64,000 bases of DNA from NCBI GenBank assembly GCA_045545475.1, contig JAZQAZ010000014.1:1-64000 (forward strand). The letters are read 5' to 3'. Positions 1,813 to 47,663 of the stretch are shown here, piece after piece. The notes beneath the pieces are model-generated. The model was given only the letters and a program-made list of their open reading frames with translations. It was not told the DNA's origin and did not search any database. The translations under genes were made by a program, and so were the position numbers. Source of the DNA: Clostridia bacterium (lineage in GTDB: Bacteria > Bacillota > Clostridia > CAKSNL01 > HGM11501). The stretch's first letter is position 1. Every line of letters begins with the position of its first letter.

Positions 1813-1815
1813 CGG

Positions 1816-1841
1816 ATGCGTCCGGTGACGGACGCATTTTT
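1816..1841 (+). terminator. Rho-independent terminator after argR
   Basis: ATGCGTCCG-gtga-CGGACGCAT stem followed by a T run. Confidence 0.7.
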
Positions 1842-1852
1842 ATGGGTGGAAT

Positions 1853-3926: not shown

Positions 3927-3929
3927 ATA

Positions 3930-4247: not shown

Positions 4248-4259
4248 AGGAGAATGACT

Positions 4260-4838: not shown

Positions 4839-4849
4839 GAGTTAAGATA

Positions 4850-5818
4850 ATGGAAAAGGTATTGTTAAACGGCACAGACCTTTATGTAAGTCCTGTTGCT
4901 CTGGGAACGGATTCTTACGGACTTTTAACAAATGAAGAAGAGTCTTATGCACTTCTTGACGAATTTTTCGCACTTGGCGGAAATCTTCTTGATACGGCAC
5001 TTATTTATTCTGACTGGGTACCCGGCGAAAAGAGTAGAAGTGAAAAGCTACTTGGCCGTTGGATGAAGCACCGAGGAAAACGTGATGATGTTATAATTTC
5101 CACAAAAGGCTCACATCCCGATTTTGCAACAATGAATGTTCATCGTCTTTCGGAGAAAGACATAAGGGGAGATCTTGAAAAGAGCCTTAAGCATTTAGGT
5201 ACTGACTATATAGATATTTACTGGCTCCACCGAGATGCAGAAGAACTGCCGGTCGACGGAATTATGGATACTCTCGGCTCTTTTGTGAAAGAAGGAAAGG
5301 TTCGCTATATCGGCGTTTCAAACTGGACGAACAGAAGAATTGCCGAAGCAAACGGGTATGCAAAAAAGAACAATCTTCCCTTAATCTCATCAAGCCAGAT
5401 TCAGTACAGCGTTGCCGAAGGCATCAAAGAGATGGGGGATCCCACTTTGGTATTGATGAACGATGAAGAATATAAGTTCTTCAAAGATACCAAAATGCCC
5501 GTATTTGCTTTTGAATCTCAGGCAAAAGGCTTTTTCTCAAAGCTTGATATTTTGGGAATAGAAGAAGTAAAAAGCAAAAAAGCTTATGCCAGATTTATGA
5601 CGGAGAAAAACCTTAAGCGTTTTGAAATAATAAAGGAGCTTTCGCTTAAATATTCCGTAAGTGTTGCCGAAATTGTTATAGCAACACTTTGCTCAAACGA
5701 AGATTTTCAGACAATTCCCATTGTGGGATGTAAAAATTCTGTACATCTTCAAAGTTCCGCTTCAGGTACTTCCTTAAAGCTTACCCAAGCGGAAGTTGAT
5801 TCGCTTATAAAACTGTGA
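4850..5818 (+). CDS. Aldo/keto reductase
   Basis: LDTALIY, SEKLLG, STKG, SLKHLGTDYIDIYWLHRD, GKVRYIGVSNW. Confidence 0.93.
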   Translation: MEKVLLNGTDLYVSPVALGTDSYGLLTNEEESYALLDEFFALGGNLLDTALIYSDWVPGEKSRSEKLLGRWMKHRGKRDDVIISTKGSHPDFATMNVHRLSEKDIRGDLEKSLKHLGTDYIDIYWLHRDAEELPVDGIMDTLGSFVKEGKVRYIGVSNWTNRRIAEANGYAKKNNLPLISSSQIQYSVAEGIKEMGDPTLVLMNDEEYKFFKDTKMPVFAFESQAKGFFSKLDILGIEEVKSKKAYARFMTEKNLKRFEIIKELSLKYSVSVAEIVIATLCSNEDFQTIPIVGCKNSVHLQSSASGTSLKLTQAEVDSLIKL

Positions 5819-31706: not shown

Positions 31707-34700
31707 ATGCGTAAATTCATTTCAATGGTGTTGGCACTTGTGATGATTTTGTCCTGCGTATACATAAATGTATCGGCAAACGAACTTATTGCAAGTACAA
31801 AGGTAGAACTTTATCAGCTTGCTCCCGAAAGTCAGAGCCTGATGGAGTCATACGTTATTAAGACAGATAACGATAAACTCATCGTTATTGACGGAGGTAT
31901 TGACGGGGCAGGTCGTACATTGGCTCCATATCTTCCTGCAGCGCTCCGTGCCATAGCAGGCGTTGGCGAGGGTGAATACTTTGAGGTAGAAGCCTGGTTC
32001 TTATCCCACGCTCATGTGGACCATTTTTACGAGCTTTCCAAAATGCTTAACGAGTACGACGAGAATTCAAACTATAAGATAAACAACTTTTATTTTGATT
32101 TTCCCGAGTTCGGAAGCGAAGAATATTCCGGAACCCTTGGCGAAACAGGAGACGGATATCTTGCGGAATTGAAAGCCGGCCTTGATAACTACGCCGAGGT
32201 TAATGAAATTGAGTTTGATTCTGAGACTTACTATGACGAAATTAACGGTGCTGTGGTAAACGAATCTGCCATAAGCAAAGGTCTTGATATTAATATAGAC
32301 GGCGTAAGATTTGAAATACTTCAGACCTGGAGCGCTGAAGACGGCACAACGGAGATAAACAACACATCTATGATTATAAGAATGCACGCCGCAGGAAAGA
32401 CAGTTTTATTCTTAAACGATGCATACATCCAGTCGGGTAACCGTCTTGTTGAAACTTACGGCGAAGACTTAAAGAGCGATTATGTGCAGACGGCTCATCA
32501 CGGACAGTCGGGCACAAAGCAGAACGTTTATGATGCGGTTGATGCGGACTTCTTCTTATGGCCCACTCCTAAATGGATATGGACTAACCCGGACAGCTAT
32601 GCCATTGACGACGTACGTACTTGGATTGCCGGTGAAGACTATCTGGAAGTTCGTGAAAACGACCTTGTTGCGGGTATGTATGATGTATATCCCGATGATC
32701 CTGCGGTTGTTGCTGACTGGGCAGAAGCGCTTCCCGGTATGAAAATCACATTTACTAACGAAGATGCAAACTATACTGCACCCAAGGCGAATAAAAACCT
32801 TAAATATACAGGTGAAGAACAGGAGCTTATAGCAGAAGGCAGCACTGATATCGGCACTATGGAATACTGCATTGAAGGAAATGACTATGCAGATGCAATT
32901 CCCGCAGCTGTAAATGCCGGAGAATATACTGTATATTACAGGATTACAGACGGCGAAAATGTTTTGGTGGAAGAAAGTATTAGTGTTACAATAGCAAAGG
33001 CGATACCTGAATTTACAGCTCCCGAAGCAAAAGTTCTTTTCAACACAGGGGAAGAACAAGAACTCATAGAAGCAGGAAGCATTGCGGAAGGTGAATTCTT
33101 ATATTCCACCGATGACGTGGACTATTCTGCTGAAATCCCCACTGCAACAGAAAGCGGTAACTATACCGTATACTATAAAGTGGAGGAAAGCGAAAATTAT
33201 CTTGAAATTTCAGGTTCCGTTGACGTTACAATAGGTGACTATAAAGTTACCTTCAAAAACGGAAACGAACTTGCACCTTTTGATGAGGATGCTTTAGTCA
33301 GCGTTATGGATGGCGAAAGCCTTGCCTCTCTTCCTTATTTTGAAGCAAAAGCAAATACATCACTTGCATACTTCAAGATAGGGGATGTCAGATTTACAGA
33401 AGAAGAACTCCTTTCTTATGAAGTTACGGAAAACACAGAAGTTTTAGCATATTTCAGAGAGTCGGCTATAACTTCCTGCGATTATGACTTTACCACTATG
33501 ACTGAGGAAGAATTTGAACTTACTGTTTTTGGTATGGACAGCGACTTTGTGCTTACCGAAGGCGTGGGTATTCAGCTTTCCAAGAACACTGAAACCACAT
33601 ATACCATTCCCATGGCAACTGATGTTTCCGAAAGTGCTTTCTCCATAAGCTACGGATGCACCGGTACTGCCAATACAGGCGGATTCAACGGACATATTAC
33701 ACGTGGAGCTGATGCTGTTGCATCTTTCTATCATACTGCAAACTCCATGGTTGTTTACGGCTCAGGTGCCACACACAGATTCACAAACGTGGGACAGGTA
33801 GACGACGGAACACGTCATACTGTAGAATATATAATAGACCTTGAAAATGAAATGCAGTATATGATTGTGGACGGCTATGCCGGCATTGTTCCTGCTGAAG
33901 GAGCATATTCTATCCGTGGAAACAGAAAGCCTGACCTTCTTAAGATTATTGAAAAAGCAGGCGGATCTCTTATTATAGACAGCTTCAGCATAAAGCGTTT
34001 TGACGATGCCAAGGCAAGAAAAGTTACTTTAGCTGCAGGAGAAGGCGTAACAGCGGTTAACTTCTTGAACAGAACGGAAAATGCAACATACGACAATTCA
34101 TATATTTATATGGTGGAAGGCACAAAGGTTCCTGTTGGTGCAACGATGGATGAAGAAACTGCCTTTTCCTCATGGGAAGCAACAAGCGGAAGCTTTTCGG
34201 ACGAAACTGCAATGAAGGCGGTTTATACGGCCGGAAGTGCAAATGCGACGGTAACCGCAGAAGGTGAAGCACCTCAGATTTCCGAAGGAGACGTTGCGAA
34301 AATCGGCAGAGTAGGTTATGCAACACTTCAGGATGCAATTAATGCAGTAGGTGACGGACAGACGATCACTCTGCTTTCCGATGAAACTGTTACAACAACA
34401 CTATTACTCAACACAGGCAACAGCTTTACCATAGACGGTGCAGGATTTGATCTTATTTTCGGAATGAGCGATAAAACAGTGAACTGTGTTTATGTTTCGG
34501 CAGACACAAAGGTGCTCTTTAAGAACATTGATATCTACAGAAACAACACCACCACAAACAACTACGGATTTTTCTATATCTCCACCGGTAGCATAACACT
34601 TGGTGATGGGGCAGTACTCGGAAGCACTTCCGTTCAGATGGTTCAGGGTAACGGCGGTATAATCTGGGTTCAGAAGGCATCAACCGACACAGGTACGGGC

Positions 34701-37700
34701 AAAGCATATTTCACCCTTAACGGTGAAGGAGCCAAGATTCAGAATGTAAAAGGCTCCTGGCAGAAAGGTTTGTTCGACGGCTCCAACGCAACGGAAGTAA
34801 ACCTTCTTAAGGGAACAATCGAAAATTGCACACATGGCACAGCCATGGTTGGAGAAAGAGGAAACTTTATAGTAAACCTGGGCGATGTTACAATTATAAA
34901 CTCAAAAGAGCCTACAGTTAACGGAAACTCCAATACCACGGTTAATATAACAGGAAGCGGAACTCTTGGAACGGTTAAGGCATCTTCTGCTAAGATAAGC
35001 TTTAAAAAGAGCCTTACCTATGGTCCTTCTTCACTTACATATCAGGGTAGCGACTTTACAGGAAGCGTTGTATTTAATGTGACAGATACTACAGTTCCTG
35101 CAAGCTATGCGAAAATTGAAAGCGGAATGAAGGTGGGAGGTGACATCAAATCAACTGACGGAAAAACCTTCAGGGTTGATGCAGACGGAAACCTTGTTAT
35201 GAGCAGCTTTGTTGAAACGGGCTATGAGCTTGAAATCAGCAATACACAGAACAATGGTTTATACAACGCAGTCTTTGTGGTTCCTGCAAGAGATAATATG
35301 GAAATTGAATCCGTAACATATGTTGATACATTCGGAAACACTTTAGACGGTAAGGCGGCAACAAAAATTACGCCCAACGATGACGGAATAACAATGACAG
35401 TTACAATAGCTGGTGACTATACCAAGGAAAACGGCTATACTGACTGGGTTGACGGAACATATGCAACCAAATACGGCGAAACTCATTTTGTTTTCGGAAA
35501 TACCGTATATAACTGGCAGGCAGGAGATATCGTATCACCTGATTTCTTCAAGGGTATTTTCATCAGAGAAGTATTGGGTGACGGTGCAGGAGACCACATT
35601 ATAAATGTTAAGTTTGCCGACGGAGAAACTCTGGAATTCAATGTGAAGACAAATCTTCAGTGGGTTGAACTTACAGCACCCGCTGCTGTTAAGGAAACGG
35701 AATATACCGATGAAATAACACCCATTGCGGGTTGGAAAACTGCGGCAACCACAGTAAGTAACAATCTTACAAAGGCCTTTGACGGATATTCCGAATACCT
35801 TATTAAGAAGCATGCGTTCACTGATGCATCAGGAAATGCAATGTCGGTAAATAACCGCTTTGAGACAGACTTTATATCGCAGGTGGTTAAAACAGCCAGC
35901 GGAAACGCTACAATTCCTTCGGGAAGCAAATATGTTTCATCTATAACTCAGGTTCTTCTGTATCCCGCACTTCGTATGGACTTTTTTGTTGATACCATTG
36001 ACGGGCTTGATACATCGGGTATCAGAATTTATCCCAGAATCAACTCTTACAATGAAAATAAGGCATCGGGAAGCGGTAGAGGTGTGCCTTCAAAAATTGT
36101 ATTCTGGGGTTCAAACGATGGAGAAAACTGGGATAACTTAGGTACGTATAATTTCAATAGTACACTCGAAGAAAAGACAGCTCTTTTTGGCAAAAATGTA
36201 AGATATCGTTATTACAAGGGCTCCATTCTTGAGGTAAATGGAAATACATATAAGCAGACAGCAAACATTTCAGAACTTGTATTTATAAAACCTGAAACAG
36301 AGCTTAAGAGTAATACAGCACTTACATTTGATACTGCAGAGGAAAATGCGATTGAATTTACCTTCAAGACATATCTTGAAGAAACAATCGAAAGCCTTAA
36401 GGATAAGTCAGGAAATGATGCGGAATTTACATTTGAAAATGACACCCTTACAATCGATGCGACTTATCTTAAAGCACTCACAGACGGAACATATGAATTT
36501 ACTGCTAAATTCACAAATGGTGCAGAATTTGCTCTTACCATTATAAAAACTGATGCGACAGAGGTTACATACCTTCTTGCAGACAGCGGAGAGATGGGAA
36601 GAGGCACAAATGAACTTGTTCTTGCAAGTGTAAGCGGAAAAGAGATAAAGAAGGTTACATATAACGGCGGAAAAGCTCTTTCATATACGGCATCCGATGA
36701 TAATAAGACAATTGCTATCGCAAGATATGATTTCCGTGGAGGTATGGATCTTTATGCTACAATGACTTTAGAGGAAGACGGACTGGTACCGGTTGTTGTG
36801 ACATACAGTGATGATACAACAAAAACCTATAATGTTACCATAAGCTCCGACTGGGTGGGAATCCCCGCACCTCATCCAGAAGCTACCTTCCTTTCCGACG
36901 AACTTAAGCCTAAGGCAGGAGAGTGGAAAGTAAGAACAAGCTCTGCAAACACAGCACATAATCATCCTGCTAACTTGTTTACCGGCAAGCTTTACAACGA
37001 GAAAAACAAGAATAACTGGCATACAGGATATACATTGGTAGATGGTGCTCCTATAGCAGATACTGAGCTTGACCAATACATTGATGTGGATTTCGGAGCA
37101 AACGTAAAGCCTTACAAGGGAATACGTATTACCGAGCGTGTAAGCGGCTCAAGATATGAGAATATCACACTTTACGGTAAGAATTCAGACGGTGAGGAGT
37201 GGACCTTACTTTACAGCGGTTCTGCTGATGCTGTGGCACCTTCTGCAAATGAAATTCTGTTTGAAGAAGCCGTAAATTATCGTTATTTAAGAATGAAGAT
37301 CAACGGTAGGGACAACCACGTTACTGCAGATATAATGCGTATTATAAACGGAGTGGAAGAAGGCCAAGTGAACATCAAGGTTACACCCACAACCGGTGGT
37401 AACGTAACTGTAACAACAGGCGGAACAACTGCTCCTTCTCTCGGAGATAACTATGTTGAAGCAAATACAAATGTAACCTTTACGGCTACAAGCGATGAGT
37501 CGGGAGAATTCTGCTATTGGATAGAGGCATCTACAGGCAAAATTCTTGGCAAGAAGGCAACGCTTAATGTAAATACTGCAATAGGTAAGGATATAAAAGC
37601 GGTATTCGCATCACCTGCGGATACGGAAGCTTTTGTAAGCTTCTACGGAATAGAAAAGGGAAGCATACTGGCAACGGGATATGTAAAGAAAAATGATGCC

Positions 37701-38477
37701 CCGTCGGCTTTGGTTCCTTCCGCTGAAAAGCTTTATACCACGGGTTATGCATTCAGCAAGTGGGTAGATAAGGAAGGAAATGATATTGATGTCGATGCGG
37801 CTGTAAGTGAAAACACAGAATACTATGCACTATATTCTGAAAAGTCAGAAGAAAATAAGAGATTCAGTACAATCACTGTAAACGGCGGTAAAGTAGTTGC
37901 ATTAGGAAGCGGAAAAGCCGGAGTGACAAGCGGAACATTTGCATATGATACTGTGCTTCGAGCAACTGCTGATGAACCCAATGAGGGCGAAGAGTTCAAG
38001 TACTGGACCTTGGAAGGTAATATCGTAAGCTATGATGAGAAATACAAATTCTATGCTCCCGACGCAGACATCACTCTTACAGCGGTATTCGGACCTAAAG
38101 AAGAAGCGGTTACAGAAAAGGTACAGATAGCAATAACCGAGACATCTGACGTAGTTAATGGTGTAAATGTCGCTGGATTTATCACAACGAGATATGTGCC
38201 TTCCGGAGTTAATGTTATTGAAACCGGTGTTATTTATGTAAAGGATGCAAGCTACGAAGGCTCAGGCGAAGACGGTAAGCTTACTGTAGCTGATGCGGGA
38301 AATACAAGTGCCAACGGAAAGACGGTAAAGGTGGCATTTTCCTCCAAAACGGAATCCGGTCAGCATAAACTTTCTGCAAGCTATACAGATCTTGGTATAA
38401 AGGCGGTTGGTTTCATAACTTATGTTGAAGGTGAGGGCATAACAACACTTTACACAGATATGATAACGGTTAAATAA
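31707..38477 (+). CDS. Giant secreted multidomain protein: ComEC/Pce-like MBL hydrolase, Ig-like repeats, beta-helix-like region, F5/8C-like domains, X2-like domain, InlB-B-like repeats
   Basis: Signal peptide; IDGG, SHAHVDH, NNTS, LNDA, AHHG MBL motifs; two (Y/F)TAP.A....TGEEQELI repeats; YATLQDAINA; FWGSNDGENW; TLTIDATYLKAL. Confidence 0.75.
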   Translation: MRKFISMVLALVMILSCVYINVSANELIASTKVELYQLAPESQSLMESYVIKTDNDKLIVIDGGIDGAGRTLAPYLPAALRAIAGVGEGEYFEVEAWFLSHAHVDHFYELSKMLNEYDENSNYKINNFYFDFPEFGSEEYSGTLGETGDGYLAELKAGLDNYAEVNEIEFDSETYYDEINGAVVNESAISKGLDINIDGVRFEILQTWSAEDGTTEINNTSMIIRMHAAGKTVLFLNDAYIQSGNRLVETYGEDLKSDYVQTAHHGQSGTKQNVYDAVDADFFLWPTPKWIWTNPDSYAIDDVRTWIAGEDYLEVRENDLVAGMYDVYPDDPAVVADWAEALPGMKITFTNEDANYTAPKANKNLKYTGEEQELIAEGSTDIGTMEYCIEGNDYADAIPAAVNAGEYTVYYRITDGENVLVEESISVTIAKAIPEFTAPEAKVLFNTGEEQELIEAGSIAEGEFLYSTDDVDYSAEIPTATESGNYTVYYKVEESENYLEISGSVDVTIGDYKVTFKNGNELAPFDEDALVSVMDGESLASLPYFEAKANTSLAYFKIGDVRFTEEELLSYEVTENTEVLAYFRESAITSCDYDFTTMTEEEFELTVFGMDSDFVLTEGVGIQLSKNTETTYTIPMATDVSESAFSISYGCTGTANTGGFNGHITRGADAVASFYHTANSMVVYGSGATHRFTNVGQVDDGTRHTVEYIIDLENEMQYMIVDGYAGIVPAEGAYSIRGNRKPDLLKIIEKAGGSLIIDSFSIKRFDDAKARKVTLAAGEGVTAVNFLNRTENATYDNSYIYMVEGTKVPVGATMDEETAFSSWEATSGSFSDETAMKAVYTAGSANATVTAEGEAPQISEGDVAKIGRVGYATLQDAINAVGDGQTITLLSDETVTTTLLLNTGNSFTIDGAGFDLIFGMSDKTVNCVYVSADTKVLFKNIDIYRNNTTTNNYGFFYISTGSITLGDGAVLGSTSVQMVQGNGGIIWVQKASTDTGTGKAYFTLNGEGAKIQNVKGSWQKGLFDGSNATEVNLLKGTIENCTHGTAMVGERGNFIVNLGDVTIINSKEPTVNGNSNTTVNITGSGTLGTVKASSAKISFKKSLTYGPSSLTYQGSDFTGSVVFNVTDTTVPASYAKIESGMKVGGDIKSTDGKTFRVDADGNLVMSSFVETGYELEISNTQNNGLYNAVFVVPARDNMEIESVTYVDTFGNTLDGKAATKITPNDDGITMTVTIAGDYTKENGYTDWVDGTYATKYGETHFVFGNTVYNWQAGDIVSPDFFKGIFIREVLGDGAGDHIINVKFADGETLEFNVKTNLQWVELTAPAAVKETEYTDEITPIAGWKTAATTVSNNLTKAFDGYSEYLIKKHAFTDASGNAMSVNNRFETDFISQVVKTASGNATIPSGSKYVSSITQVLLYPALRMDFFVDTIDGLDTSGIRIYPRINSYNENKASGSGRGVPSKIVFWGSNDGENWDNLGTYNFNSTLEEKTALFGKNVRYRYYKGSILEVNGNTYKQTANISELVFIKPETELKSNTALTFDTAEENAIEFTFKTYLEETIESLKDKSGNDAEFTFENDTLTIDATYLKALTDGTYEFTAKFTNGAEFALTIIKTDATEVTYLLADSGEMGRGTNELVLASVSGKEIKKVTYNGGKALSYTASDDNKTIAIARYDFRGGMDLYATMTLEEDGLVPVVVTYSDDTTKTYNVTISSDWVGIPAPHPEATFLSDELKPKAGEWKVRTSSANTAHNHPANLFTGKLYNEKNKNNWHTGYTLVDGAPIADTELDQYIDVDFGANVKPYKGIRITERVSGSRYENITLYGKNSDGEEWTLLYSGSADAVAPSANEILFEEAVNYRYLRMKINGRDNHVTADIMRIINGVEEGQVNIKVTPTTGGNVTVTTGGTTAPSLGDNYVEANTNVTFTATSDESGEFCYWIEASTGKILGKKATLNVNTAIGKDIKAVFASPADTEAFVSFYGIEKGSILATGYVKKNDAPSALVPSAEKLYTTGYAFSKWVDKEGNDIDVDAAVSENTEYYALYSEKSEENKRFSTITVNGGKVVALGSGKAGVTSGTFAYDTVLRATADEPNEGEEFKYWTLEGNIVSYDEKYKFYAPDADITLTAVFGPKEEAVTEKVQIAITETSDVVNGVNVAGFITTRYVPSGVNVIETGVIYVKDASYEGSGEDGKLTVADAGNTSANGKTVKVAFSSKTESGQHKLSASYTDLGIKAVGFITYVEGEGITTLYTDMITVK

Positions 38478-38486
38478 TCATAAATT

Positions 38487-38519
38487 AAAAGAACGCAGAA
38501 TTATATCTGCGTTCTTTTT
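38487..38519 (+). terminator. Rho-independent terminator
   Basis: AAAAGAACGCAGA-N7-TCTGCGTTCTTTTT. Confidence 0.85.
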
Positions 38520-38542
38520 ACATGTAAATGAATAAAAAGATA

Positions 38543-38571
38543 TTGGCAAAAGTATATTTTTGTGGTAAAAT
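38543..38571 (+). promoter_or_regulatory. Sigma-A promoter of rlmD
   Basis: TTGGCA-N17-TAAAAT with extended -10 TG. Confidence 0.6.
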
Positions 38572-38600
38572 AAATTAATTATATAATGAGGCGGATTTTT

Positions 38601-39932
38601 ATGGAAATAAACAAGAATGATGAAGTAAGAATTTATATAGACGGATATACCTCGGAGGGTGCCGGTGTTGGCAGAATAGGTAAATATCCTATATTTATAC
38701 CAAACACTGTGCGGGGAGATTATATCCTTTGCCGTATAGTTAAACCCGGCAAAACCTTTGCGTGGGGTAAGTGTATGGAAATCCTTACGCCCTCAGAGGA
38801 AAGGATAGAGGCAGTCTGCCCTCACTTTTACGAGTGCGGCGGTTGTGCCATTATGCATATGTCGGAAAAGGAGCGTGCCTTTTTCAAAAAGGACAAGGTA
38901 AAAAACGCCTTTTCCCATATAGCGGGGATGGATATAGAAGTGGCAGATACTGCAATTGGTGAAGAGACAGGCTATCGCAACAAAACACAGATGCCGGTTT
39001 CAAGCGATTATACTCAGGCTATGTACAAAAATCGTACCAATATCAAGGTAAGTGTGCCCCATTGCGTTATTCAGGACGAAGAGGCAAAGAAAGTGACGGA
39101 AATAATTATTTCTTATCTTAAGGAGAAGAAAATCCCGCCTTATGAGCCTACGGAAAAACGGGGCGTTGTCCGCCATGTGTATACCAGGGTTTCAAAATCA
39201 ACAGGCGAAATACTGGCTATAGTAATAGCGACTGAAAAAATCGACCTTACGGATATTGAAGCCCCCCTTCGTAAAGCGAATGTGACAGGATTGGTTCTTA
39301 ACATTAACGAAAAGCATACAAATACCATCCTTGGAGATAAATCTATTACGGTTTTCGGTAAAAACTTTATAACCGACCGCCTTTGCGGAACGGATTTTGA
39401 CATTTATCCCGACTCCTTTTTTCAGGTAAATAAGTACCTAACGGAGCAGCTTTACAATAAGGCTGTAAAGCTCTGTCATTTGACAGGCAAGGAAACGGTA
39501 TTCGATCTTTATTGCGGAGCGGGCACGATAACTGCAGCACTTTCAAAGGGTGCTGAAAAAGTAATCGGTGTTGAAATTGTACCCTCTGCCGTAAAATCTG
39601 CAAAATACAGTCTGGAGCGTGCCGGCATTACCAATGCTGAAATTTACGAGGGATCATCAGAAGTTGTGGCACCAAAGCTTATAGAAGAAGGAGAAAAGGC
39701 GGACGTTGTAGTTGTTGATCCGCCCAGAAAAGGCTGCGGAGAGGAGCTTCTTTCCTCAATAGCCAAAATGAAGCCGGAAAGAATCGTTTACGTATCCTGC
39801 GATGTTGCAACATTAGCACGTGATGCAAAGTATTTATCCGAACACGGCTATAAGGTCGAGAAAGCTTATCCTTTTGACATGTTTCCTTTTACATACCATG
39901 TAGAGACGATTGCTTTGCTTAAGCTTAAATGA
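38601..39932 (+). CDS. rlmD: 23S rRNA (uracil-1939-C5)-methyltransferase
   Basis: TRAM domain, CPHFYECGGC Fe-S motif, SFFQVN, DLYCGAG, VVDPPRKG, YVSCD, DMFPFTYHVE. Confidence 0.96.
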   Translation: MEINKNDEVRIYIDGYTSEGAGVGRIGKYPIFIPNTVRGDYILCRIVKPGKTFAWGKCMEILTPSEERIEAVCPHFYECGGCAIMHMSEKERAFFKKDKVKNAFSHIAGMDIEVADTAIGEETGYRNKTQMPVSSDYTQAMYKNRTNIKVSVPHCVIQDEEAKKVTEIIISYLKEKKIPPYEPTEKRGVVRHVYTRVSKSTGEILAIVIATEKIDLTDIEAPLRKANVTGLVLNINEKHTNTILGDKSITVFGKNFITDRLCGTDFDIYPDSFFQVNKYLTEQLYNKAVKLCHLTGKETVFDLYCGAGTITAALSKGAEKVIGVEIVPSAVKSAKYSLERAGITNAEIYEGSSEVVAPKLIEEGEKADVVVVDPPRKGCGEELLSSIAKMKPERIVYVSCDVATLARDAKYLSEHGYKVEKAYPFDMFPFTYHVETIALLKLK

Positions 39933-39945
39933 GAGGGGGACAGAT

Positions 39946-40638
39946 GTGGGCTATACAAAAGAAAAGATTATTGAAAAATGCGAAAAAGCATTTTGCGATA
40001 TAAAGACTTTTTATAAAAAAGATTTTATAAATTACGGCGGACGTACAACTGATACGGATGAATATTATACAGAGGTTGTAGCGGAGTTTCTTATTAAGCG
40101 TATTGCACAATACGTCAAAGGTATTCCTGAGATAACAAGAGAAAGCACATATAAAACGCCGACTCATGACGGAATGTATGATGAAAATACGCCCCGTGAG
40201 GAAGAAAAAATTGCAATGGAAATGTTTAATCAGTCAAAAGAAGGTAAGAGTTATAATTTTATAGGGGATATTATTGATTATCAGACACCTCTTAAAAACA
40301 AACGTGAGGATGTTGCGGGGAAGATTGATTTGCTTTCTTATGACGGTAACTTTTTAAGGATTCTGGAACTTAAAAAGCCGTTGAGTGATGAAAGTATGTT
40401 AAGGTGTGTTCTCGAAGGATATACATATCTCAAAACGGTAAATAAGAAAAAATTACTTGAAGATTTCACCTTGCCTGCAGAAACAGAAGTTGTTGCTTGT
40501 CCTTTTGTTTTTAAATACGGAAAGCAGCATGAGGAGATGAGCGAGGAAAGACCTTATTTATTTAAGCTTATGGAACTGCTATGCAGCAAGCCATATTATA
40601 TAAAAAAAGAAAAAGACATTTATATTGTGGAGGAATGA
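39946..40638 (+). CDS. Hypothetical protein with PD-(D/E)xK nuclease-like motif
   Basis: EEKIA...DYQTPLK...GKIDLL...ILELK; GAGGGGG RBS before GTG39946. Confidence 0.55.
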   Translation: MGYTKEKIIEKCEKAFCDIKTFYKKDFINYGGRTTDTDEYYTEVVAEFLIKRIAQYVKGIPEITRESTYKTPTHDGMYDENTPREEEKIAMEMFNQSKEGKSYNFIGDIIDYQTPLKNKREDVAGKIDLLSYDGNFLRILELKKPLSDESMLRCVLEGYTYLKTVNKKKLLEDFTLPAETEVVACPFVFKYGKQHEEMSEERPYLFKLMELLCSKPYYIKKEKDIYIVEE

Positions 40639-40642
40639 GTTT

Positions 40643-41284
40643 ATGAAAAAGTTATTGGAAAAGAGCGATTTATTAGCAGGGATATTTGCAGTGATTGCGG
40701 TGGTTGCTATAATGTGCGAGGTGGTCTTTGGGGGATTCACAAAAGAAAGTGTTGTGGGCGGAATAAAAGATATAATGGGAATTACAGTAGATATTTTGGT
40801 GTTACTTGTGGCGGCAAGTGCGCTTATTCGTAAACCGTTGAATTTCAGGAAGGCATTTACGGAAGCGATGAATGAAATAACAGAAAAATATAACCCTCTT
40901 CTTATCGAAGATAAAAAAGAGGATGTTATCAGATATAGGATTGCAAGTAATTCGGATGCTTTATTTACAGGGGAAGCCAAGGATCCCGAAAGAGTGTTTG
41001 AACTTGAAAAAAATAAACCTGAAGAAATTCGTTTTTATGTTAACAAAAGCTTTTTTGATCATAAGGGTGGAGAAGATTTTGATGCTGAATTAATAGCAAA
41101 CCAAATTTCTGTAAGGTTGGCAGCTGTATACAAAAACTACAATATTTTACCGTTTGAAAATAAAAAGAATTATGGCATTAAAGTGAATTTCACTCGTACG
41201 ATGAATAAGAGAGAGGATATTGACGAGATTGTATCCTTGATAGATTACGCTTTGTTTTTATTTGTTGCAAGGAATAAATCATGA
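40643..41284 (+). CDS. Hypothetical protein with two N-terminal transmembrane helices
   Basis: LLAGIFAVIAVVAIMCEVVF and ITVDILVLLVAASALI, then a soluble domain; GGAGG RBS inside the upstream gene. Confidence 0.7.
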   Translation: MKKLLEKSDLLAGIFAVIAVVAIMCEVVFGGFTKESVVGGIKDIMGITVDILVLLVAASALIRKPLNFRKAFTEAMNEITEKYNPLLIEDKKEDVIRYRIASNSDALFTGEAKDPERVFELEKNKPEEIRFYVNKSFFDHKGGEDFDAELIANQISVRLAAVYKNYNILPFENKKNYGIKVNFTRTMNKREDIDEIVSLIDYALFLFVARNKS

Positions 41285-42429
41285 AAATTAAAATTCATCG
41301 TGGACAAAATCAGATAGGCGGCTCTATAATTGAAGTATCAAGCGATAATGCCAGAATATTTTTGGATATTGGCATTGAACTGGACGAGGATAAAGAGATT
41401 GAAGTGCCAAAGATAGAAGGCTTGTTTTGCGGAACTAAAAACTGTGACGCTGTTATAATCACTCATTATCACTCAGACCATATAGGACTTGCGAATTATC
41501 TTCTTTCTGATATTCCTGTTTACATGGGAAATAAGGCATACAAGGTGATGAAAGCGGCCTATGATTACAGAGATATTGAAATGAATTTTACGCCCGACTT
41601 TATTGAAGACGGAAAGATTATTCAGATTAAAGATATTAAAATAACGCCTGTTTCTTGTGACCATTCTGCTTTTGATTCGTATATGCTTTTGATAGAACAC
41701 GGCGAAGAGAAAACCTTATATACGGGGGATTTCAGAGGAAACGGCAGAATGGATTTTGAAAAGATTATTGGAAAACTGCCATGTGTGGATAATTTGATTA
41801 TTGAAGGAACAACACTTTCACGCAAAGATAATATGGAAAATATACAGGAAGAAAAGCTGGAAGATATTGCTGTAGAATATCTTGATAAGCATAAGGGACC
41901 TGCGTTTATTATGATGTCGGCTATGAATATAGATAGGGTTGTAACAGCTAAAAATATTGCAAAAAGAACAAACCGATTATTTTTGGAGGATATTTATACT
42001 GCCGATATTATGACATCAATAGGGATGGATATAGAAAATACAGGCGTGTTTATGACAGGCGGAGATAAGCAGTATGAAAAACTGCAAAGGTATCCCGACA
42101 TAAAAATCGGCAAAAAAAGAATTGCAGAAACTCATTTTGTTATGTGCGTCAGAGCATCAATGAAAAACTATTTGTCTAAATTGAATGAGTTAATGTCCTT
42201 TGAAGATGGAGTGTTGTTCTATGGAATGTGGAAGGGGTATTTAGAAAGACCGGAAACAAAAGAGTTTATTGAGTTCATGGAAAGCAAAGGCGTGAAAGTT
42301 CATATTCTTCATACAAGTGGCCATGCTGATAGTATGACTATAAAAAGGTTGATCGAGGCTGTTAAGCCTGGAAAGATAATTCCGGTTCATACTGAAAATG
42401 CGAAATGGTTTGAAAACTATAAATATTAA
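41281..42429 (+). CDS. MBL-fold beta-CASP nuclease, short RNase J-like
   Basis: HRGQNQIGGS, LDIG, THYHSDH, DHS, YTGDFR, IEGT, HTSGHA, IPVHTE. Confidence 0.88.
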   Translation: MKIKIHRGQNQIGGSIIEVSSDNARIFLDIGIELDEDKEIEVPKIEGLFCGTKNCDAVIITHYHSDHIGLANYLLSDIPVYMGNKAYKVMKAAYDYRDIEMNFTPDFIEDGKIIQIKDIKITPVSCDHSAFDSYMLLIEHGEEKTLYTGDFRGNGRMDFEKIIGKLPCVDNLIIEGTTLSRKDNMENIQEEKLEDIAVEYLDKHKGPAFIMMSAMNIDRVVTAKNIAKRTNRLFLEDIYTADIMTSIGMDIENTGVFMTGGDKQYEKLQRYPDIKIGKKRIAETHFVMCVRASMKNYLSKLNELMSFEDGVLFYGMWKGYLERPETKEFIEFMESKGVKVHILHTSGHADSMTIKRLIEAVKPGKIIPVHTENAKWFENYKY

Positions 42430-42493
42430 AGGCTTTCTTCATTATTAAAAGCCGCAGGCAACATTTCTGATAATGGAGCTAAGGGGAGAGGTA

Positions 42494-43096
42494 ATGACTG
42501 ATTTGTTGAAAGAAAAAGCAAGCGAAATAATATCGTTGATTAATGATATTCCGGGAGTTAAAAATTGTACTCTTTACGGAAGCATTGCAAAAGATACATA
42601 TGATGAATTGTCAGATATTGACATAGAGATAGATGTTTCGGGGATGGATAACGGACTCTTTATGCTGAAAATTTCAGAGCTTCTCAAGGATAAAATGGAT
42701 ATTTATTATGCTGATTATGCTCCGAGCCTTGCTCCCGACAAATACATCGTGTCACTTGCAATTGATAAGGATAATCCGTTTCTTATTCTTGATTTGTGTA
42801 TTGTTGCAAATCCCCACTGCACTACTGTTACGAAAGAAGATGTAATGGGTAAAAACGGAAAATACACTCATACATTAAAGCTGTGGACAGCAAACCTCAA
42901 GCATTATGTAAGAGGGAATGAGTGCCTGAAAGATATTTTGAAGATGGCAAAGAAAATCGGGATAGAAGATGCAGAAGACAGAAAAGAAGCTGAACTGCTT
43001 TTGGAAACCTTGCACTATCTTGAGGCAAATGTTCCGAGCGGTCTTTCGGAAGTTGTGAAATCCTGCAGAATGGTTTTTGATAAATTGATGAAATAA
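42494..43096 (+). CDS. Nucleotidyltransferase (DNA pol-beta superfamily) with helical C-terminal domain
   Basis: LYGSIAKDTYDELSDIDI (GS-x-DxD) and a third Asp in ILDL. Confidence 0.75.
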   Translation: MTDLLKEKASEIISLINDIPGVKNCTLYGSIAKDTYDELSDIDIEIDVSGMDNGLFMLKISELLKDKMDIYYADYAPSLAPDKYIVSLAIDKDNPFLILDLCIVANPHCTTVTKEDVMGKNGKYTHTLKLWTANLKHYVRGNECLKDILKMAKKIGIEDAEDRKEAELLLETLHYLEANVPSGLSEVVKSCRMVFDKLMK

Positions 43097-43108
43097 CAGG
43101 TGAAGAAA

Positions 43109-43675
43109 ATGGAAAAGCAAAAAAAGAGCGGCCCCGCCATATTTATGTATATTGTTATCGGTATGACAGCCGTGGCATCTGCCGTCTGCCTTTATCTGTA
43201 CTATGGAGGAATTAATAAAAGCGATGCAATTCTCTGGGCAGGCATTGTGTCTTTTATGATAATGTATCATCTTTGGACAAGAATCATAATGGGGAATGTT
43301 TCAAAGCTTTTCAAAATAAATATGGATAATGCCTGGTTTTCGGAAAAGCCCTTTGAGAAAAAGCTCTATGAGCTATTGAGGGTTAAAAAGTGGAAAGATA
43401 AGGCTCTTACATACAATCCCGAAGCCTTTTCATTTAAGAAGCATACCCAGGAAGAAATCGTTTATGTTATGACAAAATCGGAAGTAGACCACTGGATAAA
43501 CGAAATAATCTCACTTACAAGTATTTTGTTTTCCCTTATCTGGGGTAAGGCGTGGATATTTTGTATAACTGCAGCTTTAGCTATGATTTTTGATGCACAG
43601 TTCATCATAATTCAGCGATATAACCGCCCCAGGCTTTTAAGAATTATTGAAAAGAAAAAAGGAAGAAGCATATGA
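43109..43675 (+). CDS. Membrane protein, CrtO (glycosyl-4,4'-diaponeurosporenoate acyltransferase)-like family
   Basis: VKKWKDK, E..H, IIQRYNRPRL signature; about 4 TM. Confidence 0.65.
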   Translation: MEKQKKSGPAIFMYIVIGMTAVASAVCLYLYYGGINKSDAILWAGIVSFMIMYHLWTRIIMGNVSKLFKINMDNAWFSEKPFEKKLYELLRVKKWKDKALTYNPEAFSFKKHTQEEIVYVMTKSEVDHWINEIISLTSILFSLIWGKAWIFCITAALAMIFDAQFIIIQRYNRPRLLRIIEKKKGRSI

Positions 43676-44604
43676 ACCTTTATTATGCACCCTTAGAGGG
43701 AATAAGCCTTCGGGTTTTAAGGCGTGTACACAGCGAAGTTTTCGGCTATTGCGATGCTTATTTTGCACCTTTCATAAGCCCCGGAGACCAAGAACGGGTG
43801 AACAGGAAAGGCATGAGGGATATTGCCCCGGAAGAGAATAAAGAAATAAAACCTAAAATTCAGGTGCTTACAGGGTGTGCAGAATCATTTCTGCGTTTTG
43901 CCGAAAATGTAAAAGCACTTGGCTATGATGAAATAAACATAAATATGGGTTGCCCCGTTCAGATGGTTACAAAAAAAGGAAGAGGCTCCGGTATTTTGAG
44001 AGAACCGGAGGCCCTGGATAATTTCCTTTCAGAAATCTTTTCTATTAGTGACGTGAAAATTTCAATCAAGACCAGAATAGGCTTTTATTCAGCAGATGAA
44101 CTACCACGCCTTATTGAAATATTCAATAAATATCCCATTTCCGAGCTTATGGTTCATCCAAGAATCCGTGAACAGTTTTACAAAGGTGTGCCTGACATGG
44201 ATGCTTTTTTATATGCATATAATAATTATAAAGGCAGGCTTTGCTATAACGGGGATATATGGAATAAAGAGGACTTTGACGCTATAGAGAATACATACCC
44301 TGACCTTTCGGGTGTTATGATAGGTCGTGGAGCGGTTAAAAATCCCGCCATATTCAGAGAGATAAAGGGAGGAAAAGGTTTAAGCACAGAAGAACTTTGC
44401 ACCTTTACCGAAAGAATGGCAAAAGAGTGGTATGAGGTATTGAAATCAGAAACCTACACTCTTTACAAGCTTAAGGAACTCTGGGGATATATGAGCCTCA
44501 ATTTTCCGGATGAAAAGAAGATAACAAAGGCAATTAAAAAGGCATCAAAACCAGATGAACTTATCGGACTTGCAAAATTATTACCTGACATAAAGAAAGG
44601 CTGA
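43672..44604 (+). CDS. tRNA-dihydrouridine synthase family protein
   Basis: APLEG, ININMGCP, RGSG, KTRIG, VHPR, YNGDI, VMIGRG. Confidence 0.92.
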   Translation: MNLYYAPLEGISLRVLRRVHSEVFGYCDAYFAPFISPGDQERVNRKGMRDIAPEENKEIKPKIQVLTGCAESFLRFAENVKALGYDEININMGCPVQMVTKKGRGSGILREPEALDNFLSEIFSISDVKISIKTRIGFYSADELPRLIEIFNKYPISELMVHPRIREQFYKGVPDMDAFLYAYNNYKGRLCYNGDIWNKEDFDAIENTYPDLSGVMIGRGAVKNPAIFREIKGGKGLSTEELCTFTERMAKEWYEVLKSETYTLYKLKELWGYMSLNFPDEKKITKAIKKASKPDELIGLAKLLPDIKKG

Positions 44605-44608
44605 TTAT

Positions 44609-45136
44609 ATGAATGCGATTGTAATTTATAAAACCAAATACGGAAGCACGAAAACTTATGCCGAATGGATAGCGGAGGAGCTTTCCTGCGACATTAAAGA
44701 GGCAAGGGATGTGAAGGCTGACGACCTGCTTAAGTACGACACCATAATTTACGGCGGTGGGCTTTACGCCGAAATAATCAACGGCGTGTCGCTTATTACC
44801 AAAAATTATGAAAAGCTTAAAGATAAAAAGCTTATTGTATACACAACGGGAATTACCCCGCCTGACTGCAGAGAGTATTATGACGGCGAAGTAATTGAAA
44901 AGAATTTCAAAAACGGACTCGGCAACATAAAGGTGTATAATTATCTTGGTAAAATGATTTTGGATGAGCTTACTCCCGTACACCGTATGGCAATAAAAAC
45001 CCTTAAAAAGATAATGAGTGCCAAGGAAAATCCCAGAGAAATAGAAAAGCTTTTAATAAAGCTTTGCGACACCTTTGGGGATTTTACGGATAAAAAGGCT
45101 ATAGGCGATCTTATAGAATATGCAAAAGCGGAGTGA
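44609..45136 (+). CDS. Flavodoxin-domain protein (Flavodoxin_5/HemG-like)
   Basis: YKTKYGSTKTYAEWIA FMN loop; IYGGGLYA. Confidence 0.85.
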   Translation: MNAIVIYKTKYGSTKTYAEWIAEELSCDIKEARDVKADDLLKYDTIIYGGGLYAEIINGVSLITKNYEKLKDKKLIVYTTGITPPDCREYYDGEVIEKNFKNGLGNIKVYNYLGKMILDELTPVHRMAIKTLKKIMSAKENPREIEKLLIKLCDTFGDFTDKKAIGDLIEYAKAE

Positions 45137-45140
45137 TGAA

Positions 45141-45764
45141 ATGAAATTTATATTTGATATGGATGGCACGCTTATAGACTCTATGGATGCCTACGGCGGT
45201 GCGATGGTAAGATTTCTTGACGACAACAAAATAGAATATCCTTCCGATATAGTTAAGATAATAACGCCTCTTGGCTTTAAGGGCTCGGCAAAGTATTTTC
45301 TGACCCTGGGTGCGAAAAAAACAATTAATGAAATGCTTGCGGATTTTACGGAGTATATGATAGAGCCCTACACGAAAACAATCCCTGAAAAGGAAGGGGT
45401 AACGGAGACGCTTTTAAGGCTTAAAAAGGAAGGTCATTCATTAAATGTACTTACCGCAAGCCCCCACGTTACGCTTGACCCCTGCCTTAAAAGGCTGGGC
45501 CTTTTTGACCTTTTTGAAAACGTATGGTCATGCGACGATTTTGGTATGACAAAATCTGAACCGGAAATCTACGTTGAGGCGGCAAGAAGGCTTGGCACAA
45601 CGGTTTCTGAGTGTATATTCATTGACGATAATGTAAACGCCGTTAAAACCGCAAAGGAAGCGGGAATGCACGCCTGGGGCATTTACGATAAGTCCTCGGA
45701 TTCCTATGTGGATGAAATGAAAGAAATTGCAGAACGATATATATACACATTTTCAGAAATATAG
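45141..45764 (+). CDS. HAD family phosphatase
   Basis: FDMDGTLIDS, LTAS, KSEPEIY, FIDD. Confidence 0.92.
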   Translation: MKFIFDMDGTLIDSMDAYGGAMVRFLDDNKIEYPSDIVKIITPLGFKGSAKYFLTLGAKKTINEMLADFTEYMIEPYTKTIPEKEGVTETLLRLKKEGHSLNVLTASPHVTLDPCLKRLGLFDLFENVWSCDDFGMTKSEPEIYVEAARRLGTTVSECIFIDDNVNAVKTAKEAGMHAWGIYDKSSDSYVDEMKEIAERYIYTFSEI

Positions 45765-45779
45765 AAAAGAGGTATAAAG

Positions 45780-47663
45780 ATGAAAAGAAAGCTTTACGTT
45801 CCGCTTATGAACAAAGCGGTAACTGAAGAAACAAGGGAAACCTATCTTGATATGCTGAAAAAATGCGGAGCAGACACCATATTTCTCGCCAGCGGAGACA
45901 GAACGAATTTTTATACAGACGGCGAGGGAACGGCAAATCTTGAATCAAACATAAAATATTTTGAAGATAAGGGTTATGAGGTTGGCGTATGGATAACATC
46001 CCTCGGCTACGGAACTCCCATTGCGCCGAAATACATTCCTTATATAAAGGATTATACAAAAGTTAAGGGCGTAGAAACTATATGCTACGGTGATGGCTTT
46101 TGTCCCGAAGATGAGGCTTATATGGAAAAGTATCTCGCCTGGGTGGACAGGATTGTTAAAAAAGGCGTTAAGCTTCTTATGATAGATGATGAGCTTTGCC
46201 TTTCTGCAAGACCGGGACTTGGATGCTTCTGCGATAAGCATATAAAGCTTATGGAGGATGCACTCGGCGAAAGCTTGGAGGGGAAGGACCTTAAGGAACT
46301 TTTCTTTACGGGAAAGACAAACCGCTACAGAAAGGTATGGGAAAAAACCGTTGGCGACACGCTCCGCAATTTTGCGAAAAAGGTGCGTGCAAAGGTAGAC
46401 GAAACGGATAAAAATATTCGTGTGGGCTTTTGTGCAGGCTACACCTCCTGGGACATTGAGGGAGTTGATGCCCTTGAACTTACAAAAATCCTTGCAGGGG
46501 ACAATGCACCGTTCCTTCGTTTTACGGGAGCGCCTTACTGGATTTCAAAGTGGCTTAACAAGTTTCCGGGGCAAAACCTTTCAAGCGTTTGTGAAATGGC
46601 AAGAATGCAGGAGGGGTGGAGCAGAGGAAGCGGCGTTGAAGTTTTCGCCGAGGCGGACTCATACCCACGCCCCAGATATATGATTCCCGCAAGCTATCTT
46701 GAGTGCTTTGACGCAGCTGTTACCGCAAGCGGAAATATGGGACAGCTTAAATATATGTTTGACTATTATGCATCGCCCGAATATGAAACAGGCTATATGA
46801 AGCGTCATATTAAAAACAAACCGCTTTATGCATTTTTGGAGGAGCATTTTGCCGATAAAAAAGCATACGGCGTAAAGGTGTATGAGAAAATCCATAAGTT
46901 TACTGATATGACCTTGCCCAAGCGCTATACAAATTCTGCAGACCTTATGAAGCGCTCACTTTCTCCTGCATCATCAATGCTGGCGTTTCTGGGTGTGCCC
47001 ACGGTTTATGCCGAGGACAGCGAATGTGCCATTGCCTTCGGAGAAAATGTAAAGGCGATAGAGAAAATGCCAAAGAAGCTTATTCTTGATATAACCGGTG
47101 CAAAAATCCTTAAAGAGCAGGGGATTGATACGGGCATTGAAAGCCTTACACCGATGGACGTTCCTACCCATATGATTTGCGGAAAGGTAAGAACTACACT
47201 TACCAATCCCTGGGCAGAGTATTATAACCTTAACCTTAAAAAAGGCACAGAGGTTAAATATTACTTTGAAGCACAGGATAAAGTTTTTCCCGGTGCATAC
47301 ACCTATAAAAACGGAGATACTGAATTTTTGGTATTCTCCTTTGACGGATTTATAAATAAGTACGACAGCGGACTTTTTACATCCTACATCCAGGAAAAGA
47401 CCGTAAAGGATTTCCTTGGCGATGAGTTTTGCTATATAAGAAAAGAGCCTGCGGTTTATCAGATTTGTAAGCGTGACGAAGACGAAACAGCCGTATTTTT
47501 TGAAAACCTGTGGGAGGATAGTCTCTTCGATTTTGAAATTGAGCTCGATAGGGAGTATAAAGAAGTTTCCTTCTTCGGCGCAGAGGGAATTCTCTGCGGC
47601 AAAAAAATAAAAATAACAAGTGAGATTGCACCCTACGGTATGTTTGCAGTGGTATTAAAGTAA
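45780..47663 (+). CDS. Hypothetical protein, possible glycoside-hydrolase-like TIM barrel with C-terminal domains
   Basis: Long intact ORF with RBS; FCP, MIDDEL, GCFC.KH motifs; function inferred only. Confidence 0.55.
   Translation: MKRKLYVPLMNKAVTEETRETYLDMLKKCGADTIFLASGDRTNFYTDGEGTANLESNIKYFEDKGYEVGVWITSLGYGTPIAPKYIPYIKDYTKVKGVETICYGDGFCPEDEAYMEKYLAWVDRIVKKGVKLLMIDDELCLSARPGLGCFCDKHIKLMEDALGESLEGKDLKELFFTGKTNRYRKVWEKTVGDTLRNFAKKVRAKVDETDKNIRVGFCAGYTSWDIEGVDALELTKILAGDNAPFLRFTGAPYWISKWLNKFPGQNLSSVCEMARMQEGWSRGSGVEVFAEADSYPRPRYMIPASYLECFDAAVTASGNMGQLKYMFDYYASPEYETGYMKRHIKNKPLYAFLEEHFADKKAYGVKVYEKIHKFTDMTLPKRYTNSADLMKRSLSPASSMLAFLGVPTVYAEDSECAIAFGENVKAIEKMPKKLILDITGAKILKEQGIDTGIESLTPMDVPTHMICGKVRTTLTNPWAEYYNLNLKKGTEVKYYFEAQDKVFPGAYTYKNGDTEFLVFSFDGFINKYDSGLFTSYIQEKTVKDFLGDEFCYIRKEPAVYQICKRDEDETAVFFENLWEDSLFDFEIELDREYKEVSFFGAEGILCGKKIKITSEIAPYGMFAVVLK

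Follow-up and report, generated by a model that had tools for sequence, protein, structure and literature searches.

A mobile two-nuclease cassette behind rlmD in a Clostridia genome, with defence as its best-supported proposed function

A stretch of 64,000 nucleotides from a Clostridia bacterium (assembly GCA_045545475.1, contig JAZQAZ010000014.1, positions 1 to 64,000; referred to below as the window) carries a 2.6 kb cassette of three genes, g1, g2 and g3, directly behind the 3' end of rlmD. The cassette is a real, mobile and undescribed two-nuclease module, in which known kinds of domain occur in a new family and a new architecture: g1 encodes a predicted RecB/NucS-like PD-(D/E)xK nuclease of an unannotated family, g2 a predicted membrane protein and g3 a predicted stand-alone beta-CASP nuclease of the metallo-beta-lactamase (MBL) fold. 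Defence against invading nucleic acid is the best-supported function for this module. We give that reading roughly an even chance, based on the patchy distribution of the module, the swapping of partners between loci and the genes found in its neighbourhood.

The rlmD gene (38586-39932, + strand) encodes a 23S rRNA uracil-5 methyltransferase of the RumA family (Pfam tRNA_U5-meth_tr, 85.5 bits, plus a TRAM domain) and is single-copy, with one match in its own genome at E<=1e-5. The three cassette genes follow on the same strand. A gap of 13 nt separates the rlmD stop at 39932 from the GTG start of g1 (39946-40638, 230 aa), with a GAGAGGGGGA ribosome-binding site ahead of the GTG; g2 (40643-41284, 213 aa) starts 4 nt after the end of g1, and g3 (41281-42429, 382 aa) overlaps the end of g2 in an ATGA. 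An initial annotation, made from the letters of this DNA, had described the same three coupled genes with the same 13-nt and 4-nt spacings and ATGA overlap, and its coordinates agree with ours. Its estimate of 30-35% GC for the cassette against about 43% for rlmD is also close to the computed values of 34.7% and 42.8% (41.0% for the whole window). In a sliding comparison of 308 segments of the same length the cassette has the lowest GC content, and no other segment is as low. Neither a terminator-like site between rlmD and g1 nor a strong promoter-like site ahead of g1 is seen; read-through from rlmD is therefore likely, and the cassette is probably transcribed from the rlmD promoter, together with that gene.

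Acquisition at the rlmD 3' end

The cassette is a clean insertion and was horizontally acquired. In a DNA search against 11 other genomes of the same genus, rlmD and the genes downstream of the cassette are found at 65-91% identity and the cassette is absent. rlmD is 86% nucleotide-identical to its same-genus orthologues as far as 39905-39907 (blastn). In two of these genomes (G003 and G010) homology breaks at 39905 and returns at 42504, with 42 nt between the two points; in a third (G002) it breaks at 39907 and returns at the same position, with 571 nt in between that contain a different small open reading frame (ORF). G009 and G007 have only ~210 and ~616 nt, respectively, from rlmD to dus in the coordinates of the DNA search. 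The two flanks are on separate contigs in G004, and five further same-genus genomes stand outside the junction comparison.

Position 42504, where same-genus homology resumes, is inside the start of a nucleotidyltransferase gene, g4 (42473-43096, + strand; Pfam Polbeta/NTP_transf_2), whose first codons are altered. g4 is the resident downstream flank and is not part of the cassette: it adjoins rlmD without the cassette in G002, G003 and G010. The left junction (39906-39945, + strand) comprises the last 9 rlmD codons and the 13-nt spacer with the g1 ribosome-binding site, and the right junction (42430-42503, + strand) is defined by blastn and by alignment to the same-genus genomes. In that alignment, the insertion replaces the last 9 rlmD codons as well as the opening codons of g4. 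No direct or inverted repeats of at least 12 nt pair the two junctions (repeats of 2-11 nt were outside the scope of this search), and Pfam finds no recombinase or integrase domain among the products of the cassette or of the two genes that lie beyond it.

Acquisition and boundaries are thus established by comparison with empty sites, as the initial annotation had proposed when it called the cassette horizontally acquired. A single-protein search finds g1 in 1 of 41 genomes, its own, and in none of the 40 relatives, including the 11 of the same genus. Moreover, related cassettes in other hosts are 71-94% identical in g1 and 78-87% in g3 while the rlmD proteins of the same four loci (the window, L002, L003 and L005) are only 40-51% identical.

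These loci belong to a close g1 clade, defined by at least 69% identity to g1 of the window and comprising 11 loci including the window, of which 10 are informative and 1 is not. Eight of the 10 informative loci are directly behind the 3' end of rlmD, the exceptions being L028 and L031, and the rlmD 3' end is a preferred site of this clade. The hosts of rlmD-linked cassettes share no other synteny around rlmD: DNA homology among the loci extends from 58-160 nt inside the rlmD 3' end to just past the g3 stop. In three loci (L002-L004) a stretch of ~45 nt after g3 aligns with the rlmD 3' end; such an rlmD-like remnant scores above shuffled sequence only in L003 (27, where the best of 200 shuffles reaches 25), and none is found in the window. 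More distant g1-g3 pairs occupy many other sites.

That the rlmD/rumA 3' end serves as an integration site, as had been suggested for this DNA, also agrees with the literature: excerpts of one report describe integrative and conjugative elements (ICEs) with serine integrases whose insertion into rumA changes its C-terminal end (PMC4701971). The cassette resembles such elements and their decayed derivatives in streptococci and C. difficile in that it likewise changes the last 9 rlmD codons relative to the same genus; it differs from them in its size of 2.6 kb and in having no integrase, no conjugation genes and no flanking repeats of at least 12 nt. A recombinase acting in trans, recombination via the conserved 3' end and the nucleases of the cassette itself are all possibilities for the route by which it reached rlmD.

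The same observations bear on a different reading, in which the cassette is a selfish, self-targeting element, with one or both nucleases helping it to spread or persist at the rlmD 3' end and not protecting the host; it might then be homing-endonuclease-like, or a mini-element mobilised in cis by a recombinase whose gene lies elsewhere. The recurrence behind rlmD in hosts with diverged rlmD proteins and otherwise dissimilar surroundings, the shared DNA that begins within rlmD and ends just after g3, the ~45-nt stretches behind g3, the missing integrase and the rumA precedent (in the excerpts of PMC4701971) would all suit it. Against it, the more distant pairs lie elsewhere, the window junctions have no terminal repeats, and the remnant exceeds shuffles in a single locus. 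Homing requires homology on both flanks, whereas the downstream flanks differ among hosts, and the partner swapping and g1-g3 fusion described below would be left unexplained. We regard a purely selfish element as unlikely. A more specific form of the idea, to which we assign a still smaller chance, is an autonomous, recombinase-free element whose own nucleases (g1 with or without g3) direct its entry into the conserved rlmD 3' end of very distant hosts. Such an element would amount to a new type of chromosomal 'homing cassette' and may double as a defence module.

The surroundings of the cassette show further variation. Within the genus, the content of the rlmD-to-nucleotidyltransferase junction varies: G003 and G010 have an empty junction, and G002 has an ORF of ~116 aa there (L024 1646-1996), which presumably resembles a four-helix-bundle protein. 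A CrtO-like acyltransferase gene at 43100-43675 (Pfam CrtO, 89.6 bits) forms a second small indel; the nucleotidyltransferase gene directly abuts dus in G002, and in G003 the CrtO-like gene is matched only in part. The nucleotidyltransferase gene itself (42473-43096) has weak matches to MntA-type antitoxin and PDC-S09 models, and no HEPN-like partner was noticed adjacent to it. Upstream of rlmD, a secreted protein of 2256 aa (31707-38477) has an N-terminal MBL-like HxHxDH segment (FLSHAHVDH) in its translation.

Predicted products of g1, g2 and g3

g1 has no match in Pfam (none at E<=0.1), NCBIfam or PADLOC, and its neighbours in the ESM Atlas are clusters named only 'hypothetical protein'. 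The family is nevertheless large: a word-indexed search returns 2863 proteins at E<=0.001, and 1011 clusters are found at 50% identity, 170 of them at E<=1e-30. g1 carries the motif E86/E87...Y112-Q113-x-P115-L116...K126-I-D128-L-L...E141-L-K143. An alignment of 19 homologues shows it without variation, and a set of 65, with identities down to 36%, keeps it at 90% or more. Within this larger set D128 is invariant and E141, K143, E86 and E87 are each at least 90% conserved; E86/E87, D128, E141 and K143 are the likely catalytic residues. The motif thus reads E...D...ExK and is followed by ExxxY, which we take to be comparable to the 'QxxxY' of RecB-type nucleases.

An AlphaFold2 model of g1 built from the 65-sequence alignment has a pLDDT of 97.7 and a pTM of 0.93. 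Residues 85-230 of this model match proteins of the restriction-endonuclease fold (VIA-align), with NucS (2vld, Z 7.6), Upx (Z 7.4) and XisH (2okf, Z 7.0) as the highest-scoring matches and AF1548, VC1899 and Can2 also present. The ten best matches have Z scores of 5.1-7.6, and these and nearly the whole of the remaining list are of the restriction-endonuclease fold. Foldseek likewise places NucS/EndoMS on top, with a best E value of 0.017. The structural scores are middling and the list of matches is uniform. In the searches with the full model, the N-terminal ~85 residues have no structural counterpart. As modelled, g1 is a PD-(D/E)xK nuclease by fold, since both the core alpha-beta-beta-beta-alpha-beta fold and the D...(D/E)xK motif are present. 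The PD-(D/E)xK-like pattern that the initial annotation had picked out in gene 1 is conserved among the homologues compared and sits on the matching fold, and the structure prediction it had recommended returned a restriction-endonuclease fold.

The closest kinds of protein to g1 are NucS/EndoMS (PDB 2vld and 5gke) and other RecB-like PD-(D/E)xK nucleases, namely the nuclease domains of Can2/Card1, Upx, HamA and XisH. The fold is common to NucS/EndoMS and the C-terminal 145 residues of g1 (with 2vld, rmsd 3.1 over 105 residues), and only residues 85-222 of the g1 model align with 2vld. g1 differs from NucS/EndoMS in being paired with a second nuclease. Membership of the NucS/EndoMS family (PF01939) was considered and rejected: there is no Pfam match at E<=0.1, and the g1 profile retrieves nothing from the PDB, with no NucS chain at E<=1.

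g3 matches the Pfam models Lactamase_B (43.6 bits, cut-off 22.7) and RMMBL (30.9 bits, cut-off 21.6), both above their thresholds. The residues D29, H62-x-H64-x-D66-H67, H128, D150, E175, H348 and H370 are invariant in 23 sequences; following the family definition, we take them to represent MBL motifs 1-4 and beta-CASP motifs A (D/E), B (H) and C (H/V). The complete MBL/beta-CASP motif set noted earlier for gene 3 is thus retained throughout the alignment. In a profile search of the PDB, g3 matches EF2904 (2az4, 1.7e-34), RNase J (1.8e-24), IntS11 (7e-19), Cas14 (1.9e-11) and SNM1A (9e-7), which puts the uncharacterised EF2904 closest to it among solved structures, together with RNase J and CPSF73/IntS11. 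With EF2904 and the RNase J/CPSF73/IntS11 group it shares the same MBL plus beta-CASP architecture, and its profile matches to 2az4 and RNase J span positions 3-381. Judged from these matches and motifs, g3 is a complete stand-alone beta-CASP enzyme of the RNase J/CPSF73 branch, and its substrate would be DNA or RNA.

Two more precise names for g3 were tried and rejected. As an RNase J it scores 73.9 bits against a cut-off of 400 (TIGR00649) and 62.1 against 820 (NF047419), over residues 8-234 only; as a Cas14 it scores 34.8 bits against a cut-off of 800 (NF045584). No other cas genes are seen among the ORFs of 36000-47000. g3 also differs from RNase J in length and distribution: it has 382 aa and no C-terminal domain, whereas most of the listed solved RNase J chains have 553-574 aa, and it is sporadic and mobile and not core. 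Two loci from metagenome-assembled genomes (MAGs; L002 8441-9589 and L004 1874-3043) have g3 in two frames, for which a frameshift, a sequencing error or a pseudogene is possible.

The relatives of both nucleases raise the alternative of an accessory role in nucleic-acid processing or repair, in which an RNase J-like exonuclease and a structure-specific endonuclease would act on host RNA or damaged DNA, and the position behind rlmD would provide shared expression. Apart from the kinship of g3 with RNase J, CPSF73 and IntS11 and the fact that the nearest structural match of g1 is a mismatch/flap endonuclease, NucS/EndoMS, this reading is favoured by the tight coupling to rlmD with no terminator between and by some loci that lie among translation genes (RF1-PrmC-Sua5, frr). 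What counts against it is that g1 occurs in ~1% of sampled genomes and in none of the 11 of the same genus; that transfer across phyla and loss in sister strains are unlike a housekeeping function; and that g3 falls so far short of the RNase J cut-off. We consider this role improbable, about as much so as a purely selfish element. In a bolder scenario, related to that of the homing cassette, an RNase J-like g3 might act on RNA, with the action of the module tied to the rRNA methylation made by rlmD.

g2 has two hydrophobic stretches, at ~9-30 and ~38-62, with mean Kyte-Doolittle values over 19 residues of 2.77 and 2.51 and values of at most 1.2 elsewhere. Its AlphaFold2 model (pLDDT 82.8) is a helical hairpin followed by an alpha/beta domain, in agreement with the two transmembrane helices and soluble domain of the initial annotation. 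The hairpin is predicted to be N-in and the alpha/beta domain cytoplasmic. E26 and K42-D43, in or between the hydrophobic helices, are conserved in the alignment; the soluble domain differs strongly among loci. g2 has no family match in Pfam, NCBIfam or PADLOC and only 'hypothetical protein' clusters in the ESM Atlas. The fold search with the soluble domain gives Spa15 (Z 7.0) and the C-terminal domain of T4 MotA (Z 6.7/6.2), which are within the background of helical hairpins.

None of this ties the cassette to a named defence system, which is in keeping with the first impression of it. In PADLOC-DB v2.0.0, g1 and g2 match 0 families, and g3 matches only LmuA, RTasMBL and PDC-M48B, with E values of 3e-4 to 5e-3 over ~70 N-terminal residues. 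The g1-g3 pair is not described in the literature searched, a search whose scope did not include supplementary tables, which could list candidate systems; excerpts of PMC13069673 and 10.1101/2025.09.30.679545 mention only protease-linked or other MBL systems. There are precedents for MBL/beta-CASP nucleases as immune effectors, as g3 may be: the trypsin-MBL modules (HamMAB, in excerpts of PMC13069673, and Avs2-trypsin-MBL) and Cas14 of type VII CRISPR. In contrast to these systems, the cassette has no protease, helicase, STAND or Cas partner.

Linkage, partner exchange and distribution

The association of g1 with g3 was assessed in 88 g1 loci, which reduce to 45 lineages after dereplication at 90% g1 identity; 18 of these are well flanked, with at least 2.5 kb on both sides. 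g3 adjoins g1 in 6 of 8 genome loci, is present in the locus of 24 of the 45 lineages (and, by tblastn only, in L101) and accompanies g1 in 12 of the 18 well-flanked lineages. The remaining six comprise L006 with another nuclease-like partner, four Fusobacterium-type loci with g1 alone, and L091 with neither. The order of the genes varies: g1-g2-g3, g1-g3, g3-g1, divergent, or with other genes in the middle. In the class sample, G264 and G362 have the full triple with g3 adjacent; g1 is unaccompanied in G107 and broken in G051.

Pairwise identities of g1 and g3 are correlated across 22 loci (r = 0.74; 0 of 2000 permutations as high). Such a correlation is expected of linked genes that travel together, and so it indicates co-transfer and not function. 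A protein of 642 aa from Lachnospiraceae (P0192) carries g1 (43% identity) fused to g3 (40% identity, residues 239-630); together with the linkage, this fusion suggests that the two products may bind one another physically. The g2 family is present in 18 of the 45 lineages and is elsewhere replaced or absent. The three-gene set of the initial annotation is accordingly upheld in part: its proposed co-occurrence of genes 1 and 3 is seen in the well-flanked lineages and in the fusion, and g2 is not a fixed member.

Both nucleases have other partners. Most of 30 longer g1 homologues have a second, C-terminal domain: REase-ARP/PDDEXK_13 (PF22558/PF20796), DUF6946 (PF22187) or an unannotated domain of ~300 aa. 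The last of these has a D...EAK pattern in its sequence and occurs as a separate gene after g1-g2 in L006 (8361-10224) and fused to g1 in L046 (501-2147). Conversely, g3-like genes are present in 11 of 399 class genomes, in only 3 of them with g1; the others are beside different small genes or fused. A PADLOC scan of the fused g1 proteins and of the other g3 partners gives no system match. Linkage, fusion and partner exchange are thereby established, as are the folds and conserved active sites of the two nucleases.

Several of these partners were seen at individual loci. In L006, the position of g3 is taken by the ~300-aa domain and a 295-aa beta-propeller-like protein. The g3-like genes without g1 (L111 in G015, 1487-5009; L112 in G319; L114 in G086, 3038-5266; L115 in G060) include among their partners a 199-aa protein that gives a weak WYL/HTH-like match and has a large serine recombinase as its neighbour, a 365-aa protein and a 742-aa fusion.

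The distribution of g1 is sporadic. A profile of 65 sequences finds it in 5 of 399 class genomes and 5 of 401 phylum genomes, its own genome being counted in both. Named records with a g1 relative are from Clostridia MAGs, an Acutalibacteraceae MAG, Fusobacterium, Brachyspira and Succiniclasticum. A Butyrivibrio plasmid, pCY186, has a distant g1-like gene and an MBL gene after a WYL gene.

A defence or mobile gene, known or candidate, is found no more than ~3.5 kb away in ~13 of the 45 g1 lineages, a raw count with no background rate. Such genes include McrBC in L105; a type I restriction subunit, a GmrSD-like gene and a KAP NTPase in L080; PtuA-like and PD-T4-1-like genes in L028; a WYL regulator, an NB-ARC NTPase, a relaxase and a resolvase in the L060 group; Schlafen/AlbA_2 genes in L009 and the L039 group; and RhuM in L005. 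In L049, Tn7-like TniB and TnsD/TniQ are directly before g1-g2-g3, and an Mrr-like gene comes after.

Closer to the window, metagenome contigs from three runs (X1, X3 and X5), which show presence only, match the region at ~97% identity and connect position 40638 with 41791 through 10 other letters. A degraded version is thus present in related strains, and the module is dispensable. This variant is among the points in favour of viewing the cassette as leftover cargo of a decayed larger integrative element, without a current function here, as are the lack of a recombinase and of repeats, the shortened C-terminus of g3 and the variability of the rlmD-nucleotidyltransferase junction in the genus, with another small insert in G002. 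The three frames are intact and the catalytic residues conserved, which speaks against decay; at least 8 loci repeat this set of three genes, tight junction included; and homology stops right after g3, an endpoint that independent decay would be unlikely to reach repeatedly. Leftover cargo is in our view quite unlikely.

A toxin-antitoxin-like or abortive module, in which the nucleases would be the toxin and g2, or each nuclease for the other, the restraint, would fit a small, tightly coupled operon with a mobile and patchy distribution, and g2, with its conserved charged helix residues, could be an effector or a gate. Yet Pfam, NCBIfam and PADLOC place none of the components in a toxin-antitoxin family; g2 is often missing from the locus, and a fusion of g1 with g3 exists. 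The sister-strain variant retains g1 and not g2, contrary to g2 as an essential antitoxin of g1. The analyses of the cassette yielded nothing specific in favour of this reading, and we hold it to be very unlikely, the least probable of the alternatives.

Defence as the best-supported proposed function

The cassette is an integrase-less accessory module acquired at the 3' end of the only rlmD gene. Under the defence reading, g1 would be its constant part, recognising invading nucleic acid and nicking or cutting it, and the partner of g1 would be an interchangeable second nuclease: here g3, which would degrade from the ends made by g1, and elsewhere a REase-ARP-like, DUF6946 or other domain. g2, where present, may tether or gate the g1-g3 pair at the membrane. 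Together, g1, g2 and g3 would form an anti-phage or anti-plasmid defence of an undescribed kind. A selfish element and leftover cargo are not exclusive with such a role.

A number of observations weigh against defence. g1 and g2 match no PADLOC model, and so neither has a link to any validated system. g1 occurs without g3 in 6 of the 18 well-flanked lineages, mostly Fusobacterium-type loci, so g1 can persist without g3. Twenty pattern matches in viral contigs include no relative of g1, phage records give no match, and plasmids give one distant match only. The count of ~13 in 45 lineages with defence or mobile neighbours, having no background control, is context and not a test, and many loci are among housekeeping genes (RF1-PrmC-Sua5, frr/uppS, ATP synthase, PFL). 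In the variant of X1, X3 and X5, g2 is missing and g3 has lost its N-terminal ~170 residues, the HxHxDH motif among them; g3 of the window is itself ~6-20 residues shorter at its C-terminus than most homologues; and the RNA-processing enzymes nearest to g3 would also fit a role in RNA metabolism.

If the defence reading is true, the cassette would represent a widespread, gut-associated system built on a wholly unannotated nuclease family (the 1011 clusters noted above), and g3 would be an RNase J-like beta-CASP immune effector outside CRISPR type VII and the protease-MBL modules. The many-to-many partnerships, with four kinds of second domain for g1 and several other partners for g3, are natural chimeras for telling sensor from destroyer. 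The repeated, integrase-less landing at the 3' end of rlmD genes with such diverged products offers a testable case of how a small defence cassette may move between distant genomes.

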